NCBI GenBank assembly: GCA_029262795.1
Contig: JAJCYT010000035.1
Span: 4,202-68,201 of the forward strand
Source: Candidatus Fraserbacteria bacterium
GTDB lineage: Bacteria > Bipolaricaulota > Bipolaricaulia > RBG-16-55-9 > JAJCYT01
Length of the DNA stretch: 64,000 nucleotides
Direction of reading: 5' to 3'
Both the position numbers and the translations under genes were made by a program. Shown in pieces: positions 16,181 through 21,271 of the stretch. Numbering within the stretch: the stretch's first letter is position 1; each line of letters starts with the position of its first letter. Below the pieces are notes generated by a model. That model was not told where the DNA came from, did no database searches, and worked only from the letters and a program-made list of their open reading frames with translations.

Positions 16181-16215
16181 GAAAAGCCCACGCTCAATTT
16201 GAGCGTGGGCTTTTC
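16181..16215 (+). terminator. Rho-independent terminator
   Basis: gaaaagcccacgctca-att-tgagcgtgggcttttc. Confidence 0.8.
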
Positions 16216-16308
16216 CATTTGTCATGCCCAAGATGATTAACTTGCAATTGAGGTAGGGTTCCGTTTAGTCTGATAGAAAACCAAGGATGAATTCTCAGGG
16301 AGTTTGAG

Positions 16309-16731
16309 ATGTTTGGAAAACCATCTGCAAAAATTGAAGCAATTAAAACGGTTCCAATGTTTTCCAGCTTGGATAAGAAACATTTAGAATTGATCAGTAA
16401 GCAGTTCGATGAAGTCACACTGTCTTCAGGAAATGTGTTGGCTGAACAAGGAAAAATCGGTCAAGAATTTATCATTATATTAGAAGGTCAAGCCCGCGTG
16501 GAAAAAGATGGCAAGCAAATTAACACCTTGTTTGCAGGGTCTTTCTTTGGCGAGATAGCGTTGTTGGATCGCGGCCCTAGAACTGCTTCGGTTATTGCTG
16601 AAACAGATGTGGATTTATTGGTCCTCAGTGCGCAGTATTTTGATGATCTGCTTGATGAAATCCCTGAAATGTCTCGCGCGCTATTACGCTCTTTGAGCTT
16701 GTATATTCGCAATCTGCAAACCCCAACATAA
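16309..16731 (+). CDS. Stand-alone cyclic nucleotide-binding domain protein
   Basis: Phosphate-binding cassette FFGEIALLDRGPRTASV; no HTH. Confidence 0.9.
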   Translation: MFGKPSAKIEAIKTVPMFSSLDKKHLELISKQFDEVTLSSGNVLAEQGKIGQEFIIILEGQARVEKDGKQINTLFAGSFFGEIALLDRGPRTASVIAETDVDLLVLSAQYFDDLLDEIPEMSRALLRSLSLYIRNLQTPT

Positions 16732-16777
16732 AAGAGAATTTTGCTGTTGAGGGTGGAATGTTTTTTCATGAGTGACC

Positions 16778-17362
16778 ATGATCTCTCACAAACATCAATT
16801 TATATTTATCCACATCCCAAAAACCGGCGGTAGTTCTATCGAAAAGGCGCTATGGGATTCCTCGTGCGATTGGGTGTCTGATCAATGGGATGAACGAGTG
16901 TCTCATACGGCCTTAAATCACCTTACCCTCCAAGAAATGATTGATTATGAATTGATCGATGTGGAAACCGCTTGTGCTTACTTTAAGTTTTGTTTTGTGC
17001 GCAACCCCTGGGATCGCGCTGTGTCTGAGGTGTGTTATTTGTCTCAAATTTTTAGAGGAGATGAGATATCAGAAAAGCTCGAGTATCTTTTAAAGCTGGA
17101 AAAATATGGAAACCATATTCGGCCTCAATTGGATTTTATTGAAAATGAGCATGGCATTGAAGTGGATTTCGTTGGGCGCTTTGAGCATTTACAGAAAGAC
17201 TTTAATTGGATAAGCACTATTCTGGGGCTGCCACAGAAAATGTTGCCTCATATTGCAAAAACTGATCATCAATCTTACAAAGACTACTATAGCGATGTGC
17301 TTCGACAGCAAATGACAGACAAGTACCAGCAAGATATTTTACGTTTTGGTTATCAATTTTAG
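16778..17362 (+). CDS. Carbohydrate sulfotransferase (Sulfotransfer_2 family)
   Basis: FIHIPKTGGSSI, FVRNPWDRAVS, HIRPQ, DFVGRFE, DILRFGY. Confidence 0.9.
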   Translation: MISHKHQFIFIHIPKTGGSSIEKALWDSSCDWVSDQWDERVSHTALNHLTLQEMIDYELIDVETACAYFKFCFVRNPWDRAVSEVCYLSQIFRGDEISEKLEYLLKLEKYGNHIRPQLDFIENEHGIEVDFVGRFEHLQKDFNWISTILGLPQKMLPHIAKTDHQSYKDYYSDVLRQQMTDKYQQDILRFGYQF

Positions 17363-17389
17363 CAATTAGAAAATTTTCAAAGGATATTC

Positions 17390-18904
17390 ATGTCAAACCA
17401 TCTAGATCAAGCAGAGTTGAAGACCCCCAAACTAACCATAGGGATGGCTACTTTTGACGATTACGATGGTGTGTATTTCACGATTCAATCTATCCGTTTG
17501 CATCACCCAGAGGTGCGGGATCAAATAGCTTTCTTGGTTGTTGATAATAACCCTTCCGGTTCTGCTGCTGAAAATTTGATCGCGCTTGATTATTGGATAC
17601 CCAACTATCGCTATTTGCCATTTACTGAGGTGAATGGCACCGCTGCACCACGCGATTTAATTTTTCGGGAGGCAACAACGCCCTATGTGATGTGCATGGA
17701 CAGCCATATTTTGCTTGCCCCTGGGGCCATTGCCCGCCTCATCAACTATTTTGATCAACACCCTGATTGCAAAGATCTGCTTCAGGGGCCTATGTTTTAC
17801 GATGGGTTGCAAGATGTGGCCGATCACTTTCGGCCTGTGTGGTCGGAAGGGATGTACGGTCAATGGGGTGTGGACGAACGCAGTGCGGATCCTGAACATG
17901 CACCATTTGAAATTGAAATGCAGGGATTGGGTCTGTTTGCCTGTCGAAAAGATGCCTGGTTAGGATTCAATCCACGCTTTTTAGGCTTTGGTGGTGAAGA
18001 GGGTTATATCCACGAAAAATTTCGTCAGGCAGGACATCGTGCCCTTTGTTTGCCATTTTTGCGTTGGTTACATCGATTTGCCCGGCCCAAAGGCGTCCCT
18101 TATCGAAACACCTGGGAAGATCGATTGCGCAATTACCTGATTGGCCATCATGAACTCGGCTTGGACCCAGCGCCTGTGGAAGCACATTTTAAAGAGTTGA
18201 TGGCACCAGAAACCTTTGAGCATCAATTTCTTACAGTATTAAAAGAAATTAGCAACCCTTTCTTTTCGATTGATGCAATTTATTGCATCAATTTAGATCG
18301 CAAGACTGATCGCTGGGAACAGATGAAATACCGCTTAAAAAATTTGGGAATTTTTGATCGGGTTCGTCGATTTAGCGCAATAGAAACACCAGAAAACCAC
18401 CACGTTGGGTGTGCGTTGTCGCATCGTGCGATTATTGCCCAAGCGCAAAAATGCGGATACGAAACAGTTATGGTAATTGAAGATGATGCCATTTTTTTAG
18501 AAGACACACCCGTTCACTTAAAGCGCAGCCTTGATGAACTTGCAAGCCAAGACTGGTCTTTACTGCATTTAGGCGGCCATCGATGGGGAAATGAATTTGA
18601 AAAAGTAGAGGGGTGTCAATATTTGGAACACCCATACCCCGTGCTCACCACCACCGCTGCAATGATTTATCATCATTCGATCTTTCAGAAAATACTTGAT
18701 GATATTCCAGATAATCTGAACGACATGCCTGCGTGGGTAAATCATCATATTGCCATTGATCAATATTTCGTTCACTTGAAAAACAAATTTCTTACTGTGC
18801 CTGCAATGGTAACCCAGGCAGAATTAATATCCCAGGAGGATGAAGCTTATCAAACACAATTCAAAATTCAGCTGTTACTTGAGCAAAACAAGCTGCACAA
18901 GTAA
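17390..18904 (+). CDS. Two-domain glycosyltransferase: GT-A (GT2/GT27-like) plus GT25-like
   Basis: N-domain VVDNN, CMDSH, GLGLFA, FGGEE, LHRF; C-domain IYCINLDRKTDRW, GCALSH, IEDDA. Confidence 0.85.
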   Translation: MSNHLDQAELKTPKLTIGMATFDDYDGVYFTIQSIRLHHPEVRDQIAFLVVDNNPSGSAAENLIALDYWIPNYRYLPFTEVNGTAAPRDLIFREATTPYVMCMDSHILLAPGAIARLINYFDQHPDCKDLLQGPMFYDGLQDVADHFRPVWSEGMYGQWGVDERSADPEHAPFEIEMQGLGLFACRKDAWLGFNPRFLGFGGEEGYIHEKFRQAGHRALCLPFLRWLHRFARPKGVPYRNTWEDRLRNYLIGHHELGLDPAPVEAHFKELMAPETFEHQFLTVLKEISNPFFSIDAIYCINLDRKTDRWEQMKYRLKNLGIFDRVRRFSAIETPENHHVGCALSHRAIIAQAQKCGYETVMVIEDDAIFLEDTPVHLKRSLDELASQDWSLLHLGGHRWGNEFEKVEGCQYLEHPYPVLTTTAAMIYHHSIFQKILDDIPDNLNDMPAWVNHHIAIDQYFVHLKNKFLTVPAMVTQAELISQEDEAYQTQFKIQLLLEQNKLHK

Positions 18905-18924
18905 TCGCCGCATCTCTTGTGAAA

Positions 18925-18953
18925 TTGACAATTTTTTGAAGACTGGTTATGTT
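18925..18953 (+). promoter_or_regulatory. Sigma70-like promoter upstream of the RRE fusion gene
   Basis: TTGACA-17 bp-TATGTT. Confidence 0.55.
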
Positions 18954-19020
18954 TTGATGATGTGAGAGTTTTCCAATGGGTTGAAATTAATTCAAAACCA
19001 AGTGGGCTGTAAGGAGAGAA

Positions 19021-19914
19021 ATGAGATTTTTTGTACGTCGAGAAGAGGTTCAATTTCATAAAGTAAATGATGAAATTGTATTGCAAGATTTTCAAAATGA
19101 TAAGCTGTATCGCTTAAATCATACAGCGGCCTATGTTTGGCGTCATTGCGATGGGGAAACGCAAGTGGAACAAATGCTTGCCGGTTTAACCAGGGAGCTA
19201 GGGCAGGAAGTGGATGAAGATGTGGTTCATCTTGCTTTGAATCAATTCCAAGAAGCTGGCTTACTGAGCGAAAAATCAGCTTCTCCTTCCAATCTCAACC
19301 TCTCCAGGCGCAAATTGGTCAGAATGCTGAGTATGGGAGCTGCAGCTTTGTTATTGCCTGTGGTTCAGCAATTGGCATTTGAAGATGCTACTCCTGTTGC
19401 CTTTGCGGGTACACCTTGCCCAACGACTACGGTAACAACAACCAGTGCCCCAACAACAACGGGAACAACAACAACCAGTGCGCCAACAACAACTGGAGAA
19501 CCAACAACGACCTCTGCGCCAGTGACAACTTCGCCACCAGCACCCGAACAATTCCTGGATCAAGGGCCATCTTCGCCGCCAACCGGTTCATCTGATCCCT
19601 TCTTTATTCCTGCCAGCACCCCTGTGCCTTCGAGTGCAATGGGTTTAATTTTTAATCCAGGTGATCCTGAATCGATTCGCTTGGGTATACGTAATTTGAT
19701 TGCTTTTGTTGGTTTATCAGATTTTGAATTACGTCTGGTGGTGCAGTCAGGATTGACTCTCGGGCGTCAATTACAGCGACTATCAGCTATGTTGCTTACC
19801 CGTCCAGCGCTGTTGGTCGTGGTGGATGCATTGCAGCGTGCCTGGTTGGCTTTGGAACCGGACACACGAAACACATTGCCACCTATCGGATCTATGGAAC
19901 TGCCTCAAACATAA
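19021..19914 (+). CDS. PqqD/RRE-domain protein fused to twin-Arg-like leader, Thr/Ser/Pro repeat core and helical C-terminal tail (candidate RiPP-like precursor)
   Basis: PqqD signature LNHTAAYVWRHCDG...LNQFQEAGLL; SRRKLVRML-hydrophobic-AFA; TTTSAP x3; SD aaggag. Confidence 0.8.
   Translation: MRFFVRREEVQFHKVNDEIVLQDFQNDKLYRLNHTAAYVWRHCDGETQVEQMLAGLTRELGQEVDEDVVHLALNQFQEAGLLSEKSASPSNLNLSRRKLVRMLSMGAAALLLPVVQQLAFEDATPVAFAGTPCPTTTVTTTSAPTTTGTTTTSAPTTTGEPTTTSAPVTTSPPAPEQFLDQGPSSPPTGSSDPFFIPASTPVPSSAMGLIFNPGDPESIRLGIRNLIAFVGLSDFELRLVVQSGLTLGRQLQRLSAMLLTRPALLVVVDALQRAWLALEPDTRNTLPPIGSMELPQT
19420..19545 (+). repeat. Mucin-like coding repeat PTTTV-TTTSAPTTTG-TTTTSAPTTTGEP-TTTSAP
   Basis: acaacaaccagtgc(c/g)ccaacaacaac occurs twice, plus a degenerate third copy. 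Confidence 0.85.
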
Positions 19915-19952
19915 CAAGAGTCAACGGAAAAACTAGAATTAGTGGATAGATA

Positions 19953-19990
19953 AAAATAGGGACTGAATAATTTACTTCAGTCCCTATTTT
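19953..19990. terminator. Bidirectional Rho-independent terminator
   Basis: aaaatagggactgaa...ttcagtccctatttt between convergent genes. Confidence 0.8.
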
Positions 19991-20004
19991 AATTTTGACG
20001 TTTT

Positions 20005-21177
20005 TTAATCTATTCTGAGACTTTCAGCCATTACATCGCAATGATCAAACGTAAACACATCTACCCCGCCAAGCCGATTTTCCCACATCGGAATCGTTAG
20101 GTCTGCACACATTTGTGCAACCTCATCAAAATAACGGTCAAACAAACGCCAGGGATTGAGGAATCCAACTTCGGCAGCCACTTCCATGAAATCGACGGTT
20201 TGGAGGGCTTGGGCGGCATTGGCTTCGATATCCAAAATATATTCTCGCTGGGTGTAGACATCTTCTCGAGTGGCAAGCCTGTTGATATGTCCACTGACAA
20301 GATAATTGAAGTCGTAGGCTAAAATTTGTTCATGCGCGTTGATGAAGGCAGGAACTTGCTCAGCGACGGCCAGACCCTTAAAAGGCGACCAGCCGGGGAA
20401 CACCACATCAATGAGCAGCAAGGTTTTCTGCTTTGGTGCATAAATGAACAAATTACCCGCTTCATGGACTGGACCACGATAAGTCAGTTCCAAAACTTGG
20501 TTGCCAACTTCAAGGGTGTACTGACGTCTAAACGTTTCTGTTGGCAAAGGCACTGGACCGCCGCCCACAAACACACCCCAAGGAAAACGATTGTGTTCAC
20601 CCATGCCTTCCCTCAACTGCTGATACGTGACGGCGTGGGCAATATAGGTGGCATCTTCTGGAAACATGCTGGCTGCGGCGATGTGATCCGCATGAGAATG
20701 GCTGTAGATGACGTGTGTAATTGGCTCATCGGTGACTTCAGCCACAGCGGCCAAGTAACGTTCTCCTATGCTGGGTGGGGCATCGACGACGATAACGCCT
20801 TCGCCCGTGGTCATAAACAGGGTGGTGTAAGTGCCTTCGGTTAGCCAGTAGAGGCCATCACCAATTTCTTCAACGTGATAGCCTTTGGCCGGATCAATGG
20901 CAACACCCATTGCAGCGGCAGGCAGTGTTTCGATGGGATTAATGACAATGACTTCAGCAGAAATTTCGGCGATATCTTCGACCACTTCTTCAACCGTTTC
21001 TGCCACCTCATCGACACGTTCTTCTATTTGGTCGACAACGACATCTACCTGAGTTTCAACCACTTGGGAAATGACTACGTCTTTTACTTCAGGTTTTGCC
21101 GACTTGAATGGCATGAAGATCAGGGCACTCACGGCGGCAAATGCCAAGAATCCCAATACAATTAATAAATCTCTCAT
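20005..21177 (-). CDS. Membrane-anchored metallo-beta-lactamase-fold hydrolase
   Basis: SHSHADH, GPVH, IDVV, SGH; N-terminal TM. Confidence 0.85.
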   Translation of the reverse strand: MRDLLIVLGFLAFAAVSALIFMPFKSAKPEVKDVVISQVVETQVDVVVDQIEERVDEVAETVEEVVEDIAEISAEVIVINPIETLPAAAMGVAIDPAKGYHVEEIGDGLYWLTEGTYTTLFMTTGEGVIVVDAPPSIGERYLAAVAEVTDEPITHVIYSHSHADHIAAASMFPEDATYIAHAVTYQQLREGMGEHNRFPWGVFVGGGPVPLPTETFRRQYTLEVGNQVLELTYRGPVHEAGNLFIYAPKQKTLLLIDVVFPGWSPFKGLAVAEQVPAFINAHEQILAYDFNYLVSGHINRLATREDVYTQREYILDIEANAAQALQTVDFMEVAAEVGFLNPWRLFDRYFDEVAQMCADLTIPMWENRLGGVDVFTFDHCDVMAESLRID

Positions 21178-21271
21178 TACCTTTCCCCTCCTTAGCAAAT
21201 TTCAGTAGGGAAAGTATAAATCAACTATGATGCTGATGTAAATCAGGATTGATCTAGGATAATCAGCAAAA

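Follow-up and report, generated by a model that had tools for sequence, protein, structure and literature searches.

The window, by which we mean the whole 64,000-nucleotide stretch of DNA analysed here, carries a cassette that centres on an open reading frame (ORF) at 19021..19914 on the + strand. This ORF begins with ATG and encodes a 297-aa protein that joins, in order, an RRE (RiPP recognition element) domain, a leader, a Thr-rich core and a tail domain, and the module is present in a single copy according to our genome search. Two enzyme genes precede it on the same strand. The first (16772..17362, 196 aa) encodes a sulfotransferase (PF03567 Sulfotransfer_2, E 2.5e-18), which is a candidate tailoring enzyme, and the second (17390..18904, 504 aa) encodes a glycosyltransferase that combines a GT2 domain (PF00535, residues 17-126) with a GT25 domain (PF01755, residues 338-402) and is a candidate cytoplasmic O-glycosyltransferase for the Thr-rich segment. 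Both enzymes lack a membrane segment (maximum KD19 0.67 for the sulfotransferase and 1.41 for the glycosyltransferase). The genome also encodes an APS kinase (202.7 bits), TatC (218.7 bits) and TatA (61.6 bits).

An earlier note on this DNA had credited the ORF with a strong Shine-Dalgarno sequence and a promoter of its own. The Shine-Dalgarno sequence AAGGAG is readily seen at 19011..19016 (+), 4 nt ahead of the ATG. The promoter fared less well. The sequence TTGACA-17-TATGTT is indeed present at 18925..18953 (+) and is the best match (10/12) in the region 16200-20100; however, the 10 promoter-like sites of this region do not exceed the number in shuffles (7.6, sd 2.1), and the site should thus be regarded as only a consensus match. 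A 15-bp hairpin (19953..19990) lies 3' of the ORF stop, between convergent genes. Its folding (MFE -25.5 kcal/mol, z -4.57, with 0 of 200 shuffles folding as well) makes it a likely terminator, and it is absent from the output of a simple terminator scan. In the composition profile (0.39-0.48), the cassette does not stand out as a distinct GC island.

The RRE domain, the internal leader and the Thr-rich core

The N-terminal domain (about residues 8-85, 19042..19275, +) is a PqqD-type RRE, as had been proposed from the letters alone: residues 18-82 match PF05402 (E 8.3e-10) with 39.3 bits against a cut-off of 23.4. AlphaFold2 (AF2) models it with pLDDT above 90 as a winged helix, with strands at residues 10-15, 18-23 and 28-32 followed by helices at 34-41, 49-60 and 66-78. 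When a truncated model was compared with known structures by VIA-align, the lasso peptide B1 proteins 5v1v, 6jx3 and 5v1u (5v1v and 5v1u being TbiB1) formed a top group of their own (Z 10.3, 10.2 and 10.0, rmsd 2.1-2.3 over 83-86 residues; the next row had Z 7.8). Foldseek with the full-length model returned no PDB match at E ≤ 0.001, and its best match was again TbiB1 (2.4e-3).

The RRE is followed by an internal twin-arginine-type leader (residues 93-129, 19297..19407, +), composed of S95-R-R, a helix at residues 96-104, a weak hydrophobic core, the strand L-P113-V-V and the sequence AFA129. The stretch quoted in the earlier note, NLSRRKLVRMLSMGAAALLLPVVQQLAFEDATPVAFAGTPC, is present in the translation. 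Tat signals are normally N-terminal; here the two arginines occupy residues 96-97, behind an 85-residue folded domain. The motif S95-R-R-K-L-V agrees with the pattern S/T-R-R-x-hydrophobic-hydrophobic of Tat signals, and the NCBIfam Tat model TIGR01409 aligns to residues 94-115 with a sub-threshold score (13.2 bits against a cut-off of 16.7, E 0.092), so that "twin-arginine-like", the term originally chosen, is the correct wording. At the end of the leader, the small-x-small sequence AFA (residues 127-129) corresponds to the A-A-x-A that closes the family logo described below, with an insertion ahead of it relative to that logo. The segment L110-L-L-P113-V-V115 resembles the lasso leader motif [Y/W]xxPx[L/V/I]: it keeps xxP113-x-V115, although L110 replaces the aromatic residue.

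A contact between the RRE and the leader through a beta strand had also been predicted. Two AF2 runs place a strand at residues 115-118 (block pLDDT 89-90), and all the remaining strands of both models belong to the PqqD region (4-5, 10-15, 18-23 and 28-32, with single bridges at 44 and 82). The strand itself is thus reproduced, and this inventory of strands suggests the RRE as its pairing partner. A complex prediction with the RRE (1-90) and the leader (91-135) as separate chains, run without controls, gave a score of 0.27 and a mark of 0.32, and speaks neither for nor against binding.

Behind the leader lies a Thr/Pro-rich, mucin-like segment (residues 130-176, 19408..19548, +), the proposed modified core, in which 22 of 47 residues are threonine and which AF2 leaves disordered. 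It contains the three copies of TTTSAP previously reported, and Tandem Repeats Finder detected a 33-nt period at 19434-19512 (2.3 copies, 89% matches). The human MUC5AC repeat is TTSTTSAP, and the earlier note had regarded the likeness as probably convergent. Our Pfam search agrees with convergence in sequence, as no mucin family was matched and only the low-complexity families SSP160 (15.1 bits) and New_glue (16.3 bits) appeared, both sub-threshold. Nevertheless, the likeness is probably meaningful in function, because Thr-rich tails co-occur with glycosyltransferases.

The C-terminal domain (residues 177-297, 19549..19911, +) belongs to no Pfam family, and a search of the ESM Atlas with it gave no usable match. 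AF2 predicts helices between residues 216 and 283 (block pLDDT 54-76), consistent with the helical tail noted before. A phmmer search over 1.84 billion representatives yielded 7 matches, including three proteins of 157-166 aa (P0011-P0013, 36-45% identity) in which this domain is preceded by an N-terminal hydrophobic stretch that lacks RR and that we read as a putative signal peptide. By this comparison, the tail domain is probably extracytoplasmic.

The fused family, its split relatives and their enzymes

Among 110 candidate stretches, 81 proved to contain relatives of the ORF, and these were kept as 79 loci encoding 80 proteins. The loci come from metagenome-assembled genomes of Acidobacteriota, Gemmatimonadota, Armatimonadota, Chloroflexota, Planctomycetota, Methylomirabilota, Actinomycetota and Verrucomicrobiota. 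We took the family size from these locus scans and not from a word-index protein search, which found 10 proteins, scored only the 8000 candidates sharing most words and is suspected of having been dominated by Thr-rich words; one full-length homolog emerged from it (P0002, 54% identity). Of 40 genomes of relatives, one gave a match, which was weak (E 6.7e-6) and contained internal stop codons.

PqqD is present in 79 of the 80 family proteins and RR with a hydrophobic stretch in 72, and the succession of PqqD, RR, a conserved L-P-x-V and an A-x-A end recurs in 71 of the 79 loci. Because of this recurrence, the features of the ORF are beyond chance. S95, R96 and R97 are invariant in all of the first 10 homologs; in a 73-row alignment, R96 is invariant and R97 at least 90% conserved, S or T precedes RR in 58 rows, and 67 rows read RR-x-hydrophobic-hydrophobic. 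The anchored leader logo is L-P-x-[VI]-x-S-[IV]-[VI]-A-P-x-A-A-x-A, in which A-A-x-A lies 11-13 residues past the conserved proline. Judged from the alignment, the leader is conserved far beyond what a generic signal peptide would need, and the C-terminal parts are hypervariable, which is the contrast of conserved leader and variable core that the earlier note had anticipated.

The same segment could be read as an uncleaved signal-anchor. The protein would then span the membrane once, with a cytoplasmic PqqD domain, an RR-hydrophobic anchor and a Thr-rich stalk, and the RRE would recruit another peptide or enzyme to the membrane. The two arginines fit the positive-inside rule as well as a Tat signal, and RR is followed by an uncharged stretch with a median length of 21 residues, so that an anchor is possible by length. 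Moreover, fusions of PqqD to membrane domains exist, and the N-terminus of the daptide intramembrane protease model NF041824 weakly matches the window protein (22.6 bits) and 18 of 80 family members. However, KD19 is only 1.65 for the leader but 2.77 for a true anchor, that of the neighbouring MBL protein, and the family segment contains two prolines. The A-A-x-A at a set distance from the conserved proline, the AF2 prediction of a strand, probably next to the RRE, and not of a helix at residues 115-118, the N-terminal occurrence of the same leader in stand-alone precursors, and the correspondence between tail type and neighbouring enzymes (both described below) also argue against an anchor, and we consider this reading unlikely.

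A different objection concerns the route of export. The precursor logic could be the same, with export by Sec or another route, the RRE serving only as an enzyme-docking handle without masking or a checkpoint, and RR being a recognition or charge feature. We regard this as quite improbable. Against it stand the frequency of S/T before RR and of RR-x-hydrophobic-hydrophobic in the alignment, the weakness of the hydrophobic core, the basic residues in the c-region of split leaders and the improbability of Sec export for a chain that carries many sugars. In its favour, the Tat model mostly scores below threshold (TIGR01409 reaches E ≤ 0.1 in 16 of 80 family members, and one split precursor among 17 scores above the cut-off), and the stand-alone relatives of the tail domain start with hydrophobic stretches that lack RR. 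Additionally, in the available part of the report on LPP (linear polyphosphorylated peptide) systems, a signal-peptidase-I-like enzyme acts on a leader that is presented to it by the RRE (PMC13381572).

The family has Cys-rich, Thr-rich, SG-rich and collagen-like tails as well as larger domains, and across the 79 loci the type of tail varies with the enzymes encoded nearby. Cys-rich tails occur in 53 loci, with only the kinase or nucleotidyltransferase in 44, both kinds of enzyme in 2 and none in 7. The 4 loci with Thr-rich tails include 3 with a glycosyltransferase and 1 with none, in which the gene sits at a contig end; the window and locus L160 supply two further Thr-rich cases with a glycosyltransferase beyond the 79. 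When neighbours were clustered, a kinase was found in 52 loci and a nucleotidyltransferase in 38, the next largest cluster covering 12, and the exact order kinase-family gene-nucleotidyltransferase (K-F-N) was seen in 24. The kinases match TIGR04352 (E 1e-16, 60.8 bits, below the cut-off of 200), the nucleotidyltransferases match PF14907, and TIGR04353 matches 44 of the 80 family members. Clustering placed neither an HprK-like kinase nor a PF14907 nucleotidyltransferase in positions 9001-30000 of the window, and among the neighbours in the 79 loci no dedicated exporter or peptidase was conserved.

The two enzymes of the window have counterparts beside Thr-rich members. The GT2 part shares 59% identity (E 2e-105) with the glycosyltransferase beside the Thr-rich member at L038, and the sulfotransferase shares 23% identity (E 1e-13) with the C-terminal sulfotransferase domain of a multi-domain enzyme that adjoins the Thr-rich member at L072. 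We found 521 relatives of the window glycosyltransferase in metagenomes and examined the loci of the best 80, whose GT2 domains are 56-69% identical to it. PqqD is also encoded in 42 of these 80 loci, either fused to the glycosyltransferase (10 loci), as a discrete protein, or fused to an RR-Thr-rich protein as at L160. In a quick IQ-TREE tree, the window glycosyltransferase groups with PqqD-GT2-GT25 fusions (support 86), outside an eCIS-linked clade.

These data bear on the simplest objection, that the neighbours are coincidental, the sulfotransferase and glycosyltransferase acting on a glycan or lipid unrelated to the PqqD fusion protein. Glycosyltransferases of the same GT2-GT25 architecture do occur without PqqD in 7 eCIS-like loci, so that this enzyme type is not always linked to an RRE, and a promoter-like site separates the glycosyltransferase gene from the ORF. 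However, the window enzyme lies outside the eCIS clade, many of the 42 loci that also encode PqqD are only 1-5 kb long, fusion to this very glycosyltransferase domain recurs, and the Thr-rich members at L038, L072, L076 and L160 all have glycosyltransferase neighbours. Coincidence is therefore very unlikely in our estimate.

The glycosyltransferase loci also revealed split systems. A Thr-rich ORF is present in 28 of the best 80 loci, and most of these are small stand-alone precursors with an N-terminal RR leader bearing a lasso-type WxxPxV. RR is found in 25 of the 28 and [WY]xxPx[VILM] in 21, with L113 among the latter off position; the split leaders read WxxPx[VI] or YxxPxV and carry basic residues in the c-region. 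The WxxPxV type is the RRE-binding motif of lasso and LPP systems, according to the accessible part of one report (PMC13381572). The pairing of a discrete PqqD protein with an RR precursor bearing WxxPxV lends independent support to the view that this type of leader may be an RRE ligand. The window gene thus represents the fused counterpart of a system in which RRE and precursor are separate proteins.

A putative mechanism

The glycosyltransferase and sulfotransferase lie beside a single gene that unites RRE, leader and Thr-rich segment, and the protein is thus probably self-presenting for modification before export. We propose that the ORF encodes a one-piece, self-guided precursor that undergoes cytoplasmic O-glycosylation and sulfation guided by its RRE in cis, followed by Tat-type export and cleavage, and we consider this moderately probable. 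The proposal builds on what we observed: a conserved arrangement of domains, its association with the two kinds of enzyme, and relatives in which RRE and precursor are split. How the leader is bound, which step follows which, what the modifications are, export through Tat and cleavage are inferred, as follows. In the cytoplasm, the lasso-B1-like RRE would bind the leader that follows it, taking up L-P-V-V as an additional beta strand. The RRE-leader unit would dock the soluble GT2-GT25 enzyme encoded just upstream, which would O-glycosylate the threonines, and the sulfotransferase would then add sulfate from PAPS. The bulky modified protein would exit through the Tat system, and signal peptidase would cut after AFA129, so that a sulfated glycoprotein, including the tail domain, would be released on the outer side of the cell membrane.

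Only tentatively do we extend this to a large, undescribed class, a generalization that is possible rather than probable. In this class, a lasso-type RRE and a twin-arginine signal would be combined in one chain as an intramolecular checkpoint for export. The RRE would clamp the L-P-x-V strand and dock the tailoring enzymes, namely GT2-GT25 and sulfotransferase here and kinase and nucleotidyltransferase elsewhere, and only the finished product would reach Tat and signal peptidase. The window gene would then yield a sulfated mucin-type glycoprotein made wholly in the cytoplasm.

Comparison with known systems

Known RREs either form part of an enzyme or act as free-standing adaptors, and none joined to its own substrate was described in the literature searched. 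Lasso systems provide the closest fold, but their RRE is discrete, whereas that of the window is fused in cis upstream of the leader. Unlike lasso systems, the window also has no nearby lasso cyclase or B2 protease, and its leader combines leucine in place of the aromatic anchor with the form of a signal peptide.

As far as the accessible parts of two reports describe them, LPP and paeninodin/pseudomycoidin sets combine an HprK-like kinase, an RRE and an NTP transferase (PMC13381572, PMC8498205), and LPP leaders are removed by a signal-peptidase-I-type enzyme to which the RRE presents the site (PMC13381572). Most relatives of the window protein likewise lie in kinase-RRE-nucleotidyltransferase cassettes, which resemble LPP and the "HPr-rel-A system" (TIGR04352/TIGR04353). 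In contrast, the window has a sulfotransferase and GT2-GT25 instead of a kinase and a nucleotidyltransferase, its RRE is fused to the substrate, and it lacks a dedicated peptidase or MsbA-type exporter; moreover, the family phyla are Gram-negative or environmental and not Bacillota. RRE-glycosyltransferase (PF00535) fusions appear as uncharacterised in the available portions of the RRE-Finder report (PMC7470986) and of a 2025 mSystems RRE survey (PMC12710340). The fusions of PqqD to the window GT2 family are of this kind, although those portions name no substrates, Thr-rich precursors or RR leaders.

Beyond RRE systems, two further comparisons concern steps before export. The Tat proofreading chaperones TorD, DmsD and NapD bind twin-arginine leaders in the cytoplasm, and the RRE would similarly be a cytoplasmic module on such a leader that could delay export until maturation is complete. 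However, the window protein itself contains the module, which has an RRE fold, and carries an internal signal (residues 95-129), and maturation would consist of glycosylation and sulfation and not of cofactor insertion. Glycocins such as sublancin are glycosylated in the cytoplasm before export by a soluble GT2-type enzyme (SunS for sublancin), as we propose for the window product. They differ in having double-glycine leaders, ABC exporters and one or two sugars, and they are not known to be guided by an RRE, whereas the window precursor carries an RRE and an RR leader.

As in mucin PTS domains, a Thr/Ser/Pro tandem repeat here accompanies glycosyl- and sulfotransferases, which makes it a likely substrate for dense O-glycosylation and sulfation; there is no homology to mucins, and the segment has 47 residues compared with thousands. 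If our proposal is true, one peptide can serve both as a leader and as an export signal, and the dedicated exporters and proteases of RiPP clusters can be dispensed with in favour of the general Tat and signal-peptidase machinery. Dense O-glycosylation of mucin-like products, here with sulfation as well, would then take place in the cytoplasm of bacteria from many phyla. One precursor logic would also connect RRE-glycosyltransferase fusions with HPr-rel-A kinase cassettes, both of which appear as uncharacterised in the accessible parts of the reports. The conserved leader, with RR followed by L-P-x-V or WxxPxV and then by A-x-A, provides a handle for searches.

The window gene and its conserved leader

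The window protein is encoded by an ATG-started ORF of 297 aa at 19021-19914 (+), and the domain layout claimed for it in an earlier note was borne out. PqqD (PF05402) matches residues 18-82 with 39.3 bits (Pfam cut-off 23.4). Residues 93-129 run from S-R-R-K-L-V-R through a short Ala/Leu-rich core and L-P-V-V-Q-Q to A-F-A; this leader had been called twin-arginine-like, and although both S-R-R and AFA are present, the NCBIfam Tat model scored 13.2 bits, under its cut-off of 16.7. The TTTSAP repeat that had been seen occurs as three units in residues 130-176, where Thr makes up 47% of residues and the DNA has a repeat period of 33 nt. The tail (residues 177-297) is, as had been proposed, non-repetitive and helical by prediction, at moderate confidence. 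Upstream of the ATG, AAGGAG provides the strong Shine-Dalgarno that had been noted, whereas the suggested promoter, TTGACA-17-TATGTT, fits the consensus better than any other site in its surroundings, yet belongs to a type of site no commoner than in shuffles. A 15-bp hairpin lies 3′ of the stop.

A word-index search with the window protein, scoring the 8000 candidates with the most shared words, found only 10 proteins. P0002 is a full-length homolog (54% identity), and the likeness of the remaining proteins is confined to the first ~130 residues; S95, R96, R97, L111 and P113 are invariant among these relatives. With each species represented by a single genome, a pattern scan gave 110 stretches. 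The 81 relatives among them were retained as 79 MAG loci spanning at least eight phyla, and the ORFs taken at the locus matches together with the window protein made up a family set of 80 proteins. PqqD was found in 79 of the 80 and RR followed by a hydrophobic stretch in 72, the exceptions being L057, where the wrong ORF had been chosen; L063 and L074, whose genes seem to be frame-broken; L073, a masked stretch; L071 and L077, both plain PqqD proteins of ~100 aa; and L058 and L068. Of 73 aligned rows, 58 have S or T before RR and 67 have RR-x-hydrophobic-hydrophobic. When the leaders were lined up at the conserved proline, 66 of the 71 yielded the consensus L-P-x-[VI]-x-S-[IV]-[VI]-A-P-x-A-A-x-A, a conservation that goes well beyond the needs of export alone.

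Both the comparison of loci and the predicted structure support the idea of a RiPP recognition element (RRE) that binds the leader of its own chain. AlphaFold2 with the 80-row alignment gave the RRE a pLDDT above 90, followed by a helix (96-104) and a strand (115-118; block pLDDT 89); when residues 1-135 were modelled separately from 73 aligned rows (mean pLDDT 85, pTM 0.77), the strand recurred (pLDDT 90). Since all other strands in both models lie in the PqqD region (4-5, 10-15, 18-23 and 28-32, with single bridges at 44 and 82), the modelled leader strand most likely continues the PqqD sheet. Among solved folds, lasso B1 proteins in crystals with their leaders come nearest (Z 10.3, 10.2 and 10.0; next row 7.8).

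Glycosyltransferases and split precursors

Upstream of the window gene lie a sulfotransferase (16772..17362, +; 196 aa) and a GT2-GT25 glycosyltransferase (17390..18904, +; 504 aa), both of which appear from sequence to be part of the RRE-leader system. The GT2 part is 59% identical (E 2e-105) to a neighbour of the fusion gene at L038, while the two fusion proteins share only ~32%; the sulfotransferase is a distant relative (23%, E 1e-13) of a sulfotransferase domain at L072. Scanning metagenomes with the window GT2 domain yielded at least 521 relatives, and the PqqD-plus-leader profile matched 42 of the best 80 loci retained (56-69% identity), many just 1-5 kb long. Most commonly, a discrete PqqD of 90-130 aa adjoins the glycosyltransferase. 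PqqD is fused to the enzyme's N-terminus in 10 of these 80 loci, and one L104 protein, PqqD-GT2-GT25, has the architecture of the window enzyme with an RRE added. At L160, a PqqD-RR-leader-Thr-rich fusion is found, as in the window and L038.

Thr-rich ORFs occur in 28 of the best 80 loci, mostly as small stand-alone proteins with an RR leader at the start that closes with P-A-H-A immediately before the Thr run. RR is present in 25 of the 28 and [WY]xxPx[VILM] in 21, typically as W-T-K/R-P-V/I-V/I (off position in L113). L104, the closest relative of the window's glycosyltransferase among the best 80 of at least 521 relatives, has four small ORFs with RR then Y-T-A-P-A-V. Portions of PMC13381572 give [Y/W]xxPx[L/V/I] as the motif bound by the RREs of lasso peptides and of linear polyphosphorylated peptides, a Bacillota family whose description dates from 2026. 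Because split precursors carry leaders with RR and this motif, we regard the window's internal segment as the counterpart of an N-terminal leader recognised by a separate PqqD protein, and the window gene as the fused form. The aromatic position is mostly V, L or A in the fused family, a replacement that is plausible where the ligand is tethered.

The L104 precursors sit in a low-GC (39%) cluster (L104:1700-13800). Its other genes include two PqqD-GT2(-GT25) fusions, a third of which the locus end leaves just the start, a fusion of PqqD with an HprK-like kinase, a gene of probable PF14907 type and an ORF resembling a sulfotransferase. The Thr-rich precursors of L090, L091 and L098 have S-R-R-R-F-V-R-N leaders without the WxxP motif, and a hydrophobic C-terminal segment beyond the Thr run that may serve in sorting or anchoring.

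GT2-GT25 enzymes of ~490 aa without any PqqD were found in seven loci (L108, L118, L120, L121, L132, L145, L151) with eCIS-core, pentapeptide-repeat and sigma-54-activator genes; this glycosyltransferase type may also serve contractile-injection loci. In a quick maximum-likelihood tree they form a single clade (support 95), outside which the window enzyme groups with PqqD-GT2-GT25 fusions (support 86). The genes of the PqqD-free clade stand last in operons that encode very large eCIS-core-domain proteins, sigma-54 activators, pentapeptide-repeat proteins and an Imm33-like protein.

Tails and their neighbouring enzymes

The post-leader part of family proteins is hypervariable: the majority of tails have 30-50 residues with 4-8 Cys, and a minority are Thr-rich, SG-rich, collagen-like or carry larger domains. 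ORF clustering of neighbours revealed two conserved partners, a ~280-aa protein at 52 loci matching HprK-related kinase A (TIGR04352, E 1e-16; 60.8 bits, below the cut-off of 200) and a PF14907 nucleotidyltransferase at 38, with the exact order kinase-fusion-nucleotidyltransferase at 24; neither partner was found in 9001-30000 of the window. Tail type sorts with neighbouring enzymes. Counting related loci, which are non-independent samples though they span several phyla, 44 of 53 Cys-rich tails have kinase/nucleotidyltransferase neighbours only, two have both kinds of neighbour and seven none; three of four Thr-rich tails have glycosyltransferases and one, at a contig end, none; and the 22 other tails divide into 12 with kinase or nucleotidyltransferase, three with glycosyltransferase and seven with none. 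The glycosyltransferase neighbourhoods comprise GT2 and DUF7164 (L038), DUF6065 and GT2 (L070, L076), GT2 and GT1 (L027), and Stf0 sulfotransferase, DUF6065, GT2 and Sulfotransfer_2 with a second DUF6065-GT2 (L072).

Portions of PMC8498205 show lasso tailoring kinases and nucleotidyltransferases to be already known. RRE-glycosyltransferase fusions are given as uncharacterised in parts of PMC7470986 and PMC12710340, the latter also noting precursors that go with an RRE and carry Sec signal peptides (DUF2282). The literature searched, supplements aside, held nothing relevant on PqqD or a RiPP leader peptide with twin-arginine, HprK-related kinase or DUF6065, a Thr-rich RiPP glycosyltransferase or RRE with glycosyltransferase and Thr-rich, or an RRE fused to a precursor. 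The window form unites a fused RRE, Thr-rich core, GT2-GT25 and sulfotransferase, joining the fused Cys-rich and split Thr-rich forms, and we class the window gene as a variant form of the RRE-guided modification of peptides or proteins.

Among individual members, P0007 has a collagen-like G-P-Q/G-P-T repeat tail (PF01391, precomputed), neither Cys- nor Thr-rich. The gene at L018:8354-9898, flanked by the nucleotidyltransferase and Cys-rich fusion genes, joins a MauE-DoxX membrane domain to AhpC/thioredoxin domains; its product is a likely disulfide-forming partner of Cys-rich tails. The Thr-rich fused relatives P0003-P0006, P0009 and L038:3234-3971 have a lipobox-like V-T-S-C straight after L-P-V-V and a conserved Cys/His end motif, C-H-x-G-x-T-I-x-V-D ... 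G-D-T-L-G-P-C-P; their products may be lipid-anchored glycoproteins.

Topology, export and flanking genes

Three stand-alone relatives of the tail domain (P0011, P0012, P0013; 157-166 aa, 36-45% identity) consist of an apparent N-terminal signal peptide and the domain of window residues 181-297, for which we found no family annotation. Since these N-termini read as ordinary signal peptides, the window tail domain is probably extracytoplasmic. Cytoplasmic modification and subsequent export via general machinery would fit, because the leader is marginally hydrophobic (maximum hydropathy, KD19, 1.65 compared with 2.77 for the genuine membrane anchor of the adjacent MBL-fold protein), the window's glycosyltransferase and sulfotransferase are without membrane segments, TatC, TatA and APS kinase are encoded in the genome, and neighbour clustering of the 79 loci found no exporter or peptidase conserved beside family genes. 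Motif statistics and the bulk of a glycosylated cargo favour the Tat route; we put Tat dependence forward as a hypothesis because the Tat HMM falls mostly below cut-off in the window protein, family members and split precursors. Export masking, cleavage and the glycan and sulfate chemistry are, like Tat dependence, features that we infer.

Convergent to the window gene, 20005-21198 (-) encodes the metallo-beta-lactamase-fold protein, whose N-terminal membrane anchor is accompanied by an acidic linker rich in Val and Glu; among NCBIfam models it best matched the SoxH-related 'quinoprotein relay system zinc metallohydrolase 2' (77 bits, below cut-off). A 140-aa cyclic-nucleotide-binding-domain protein is encoded at 16309-16731 (+), ending 40 nt upstream of the sulfotransferase gene, and may be co-transcribed with the cassette.
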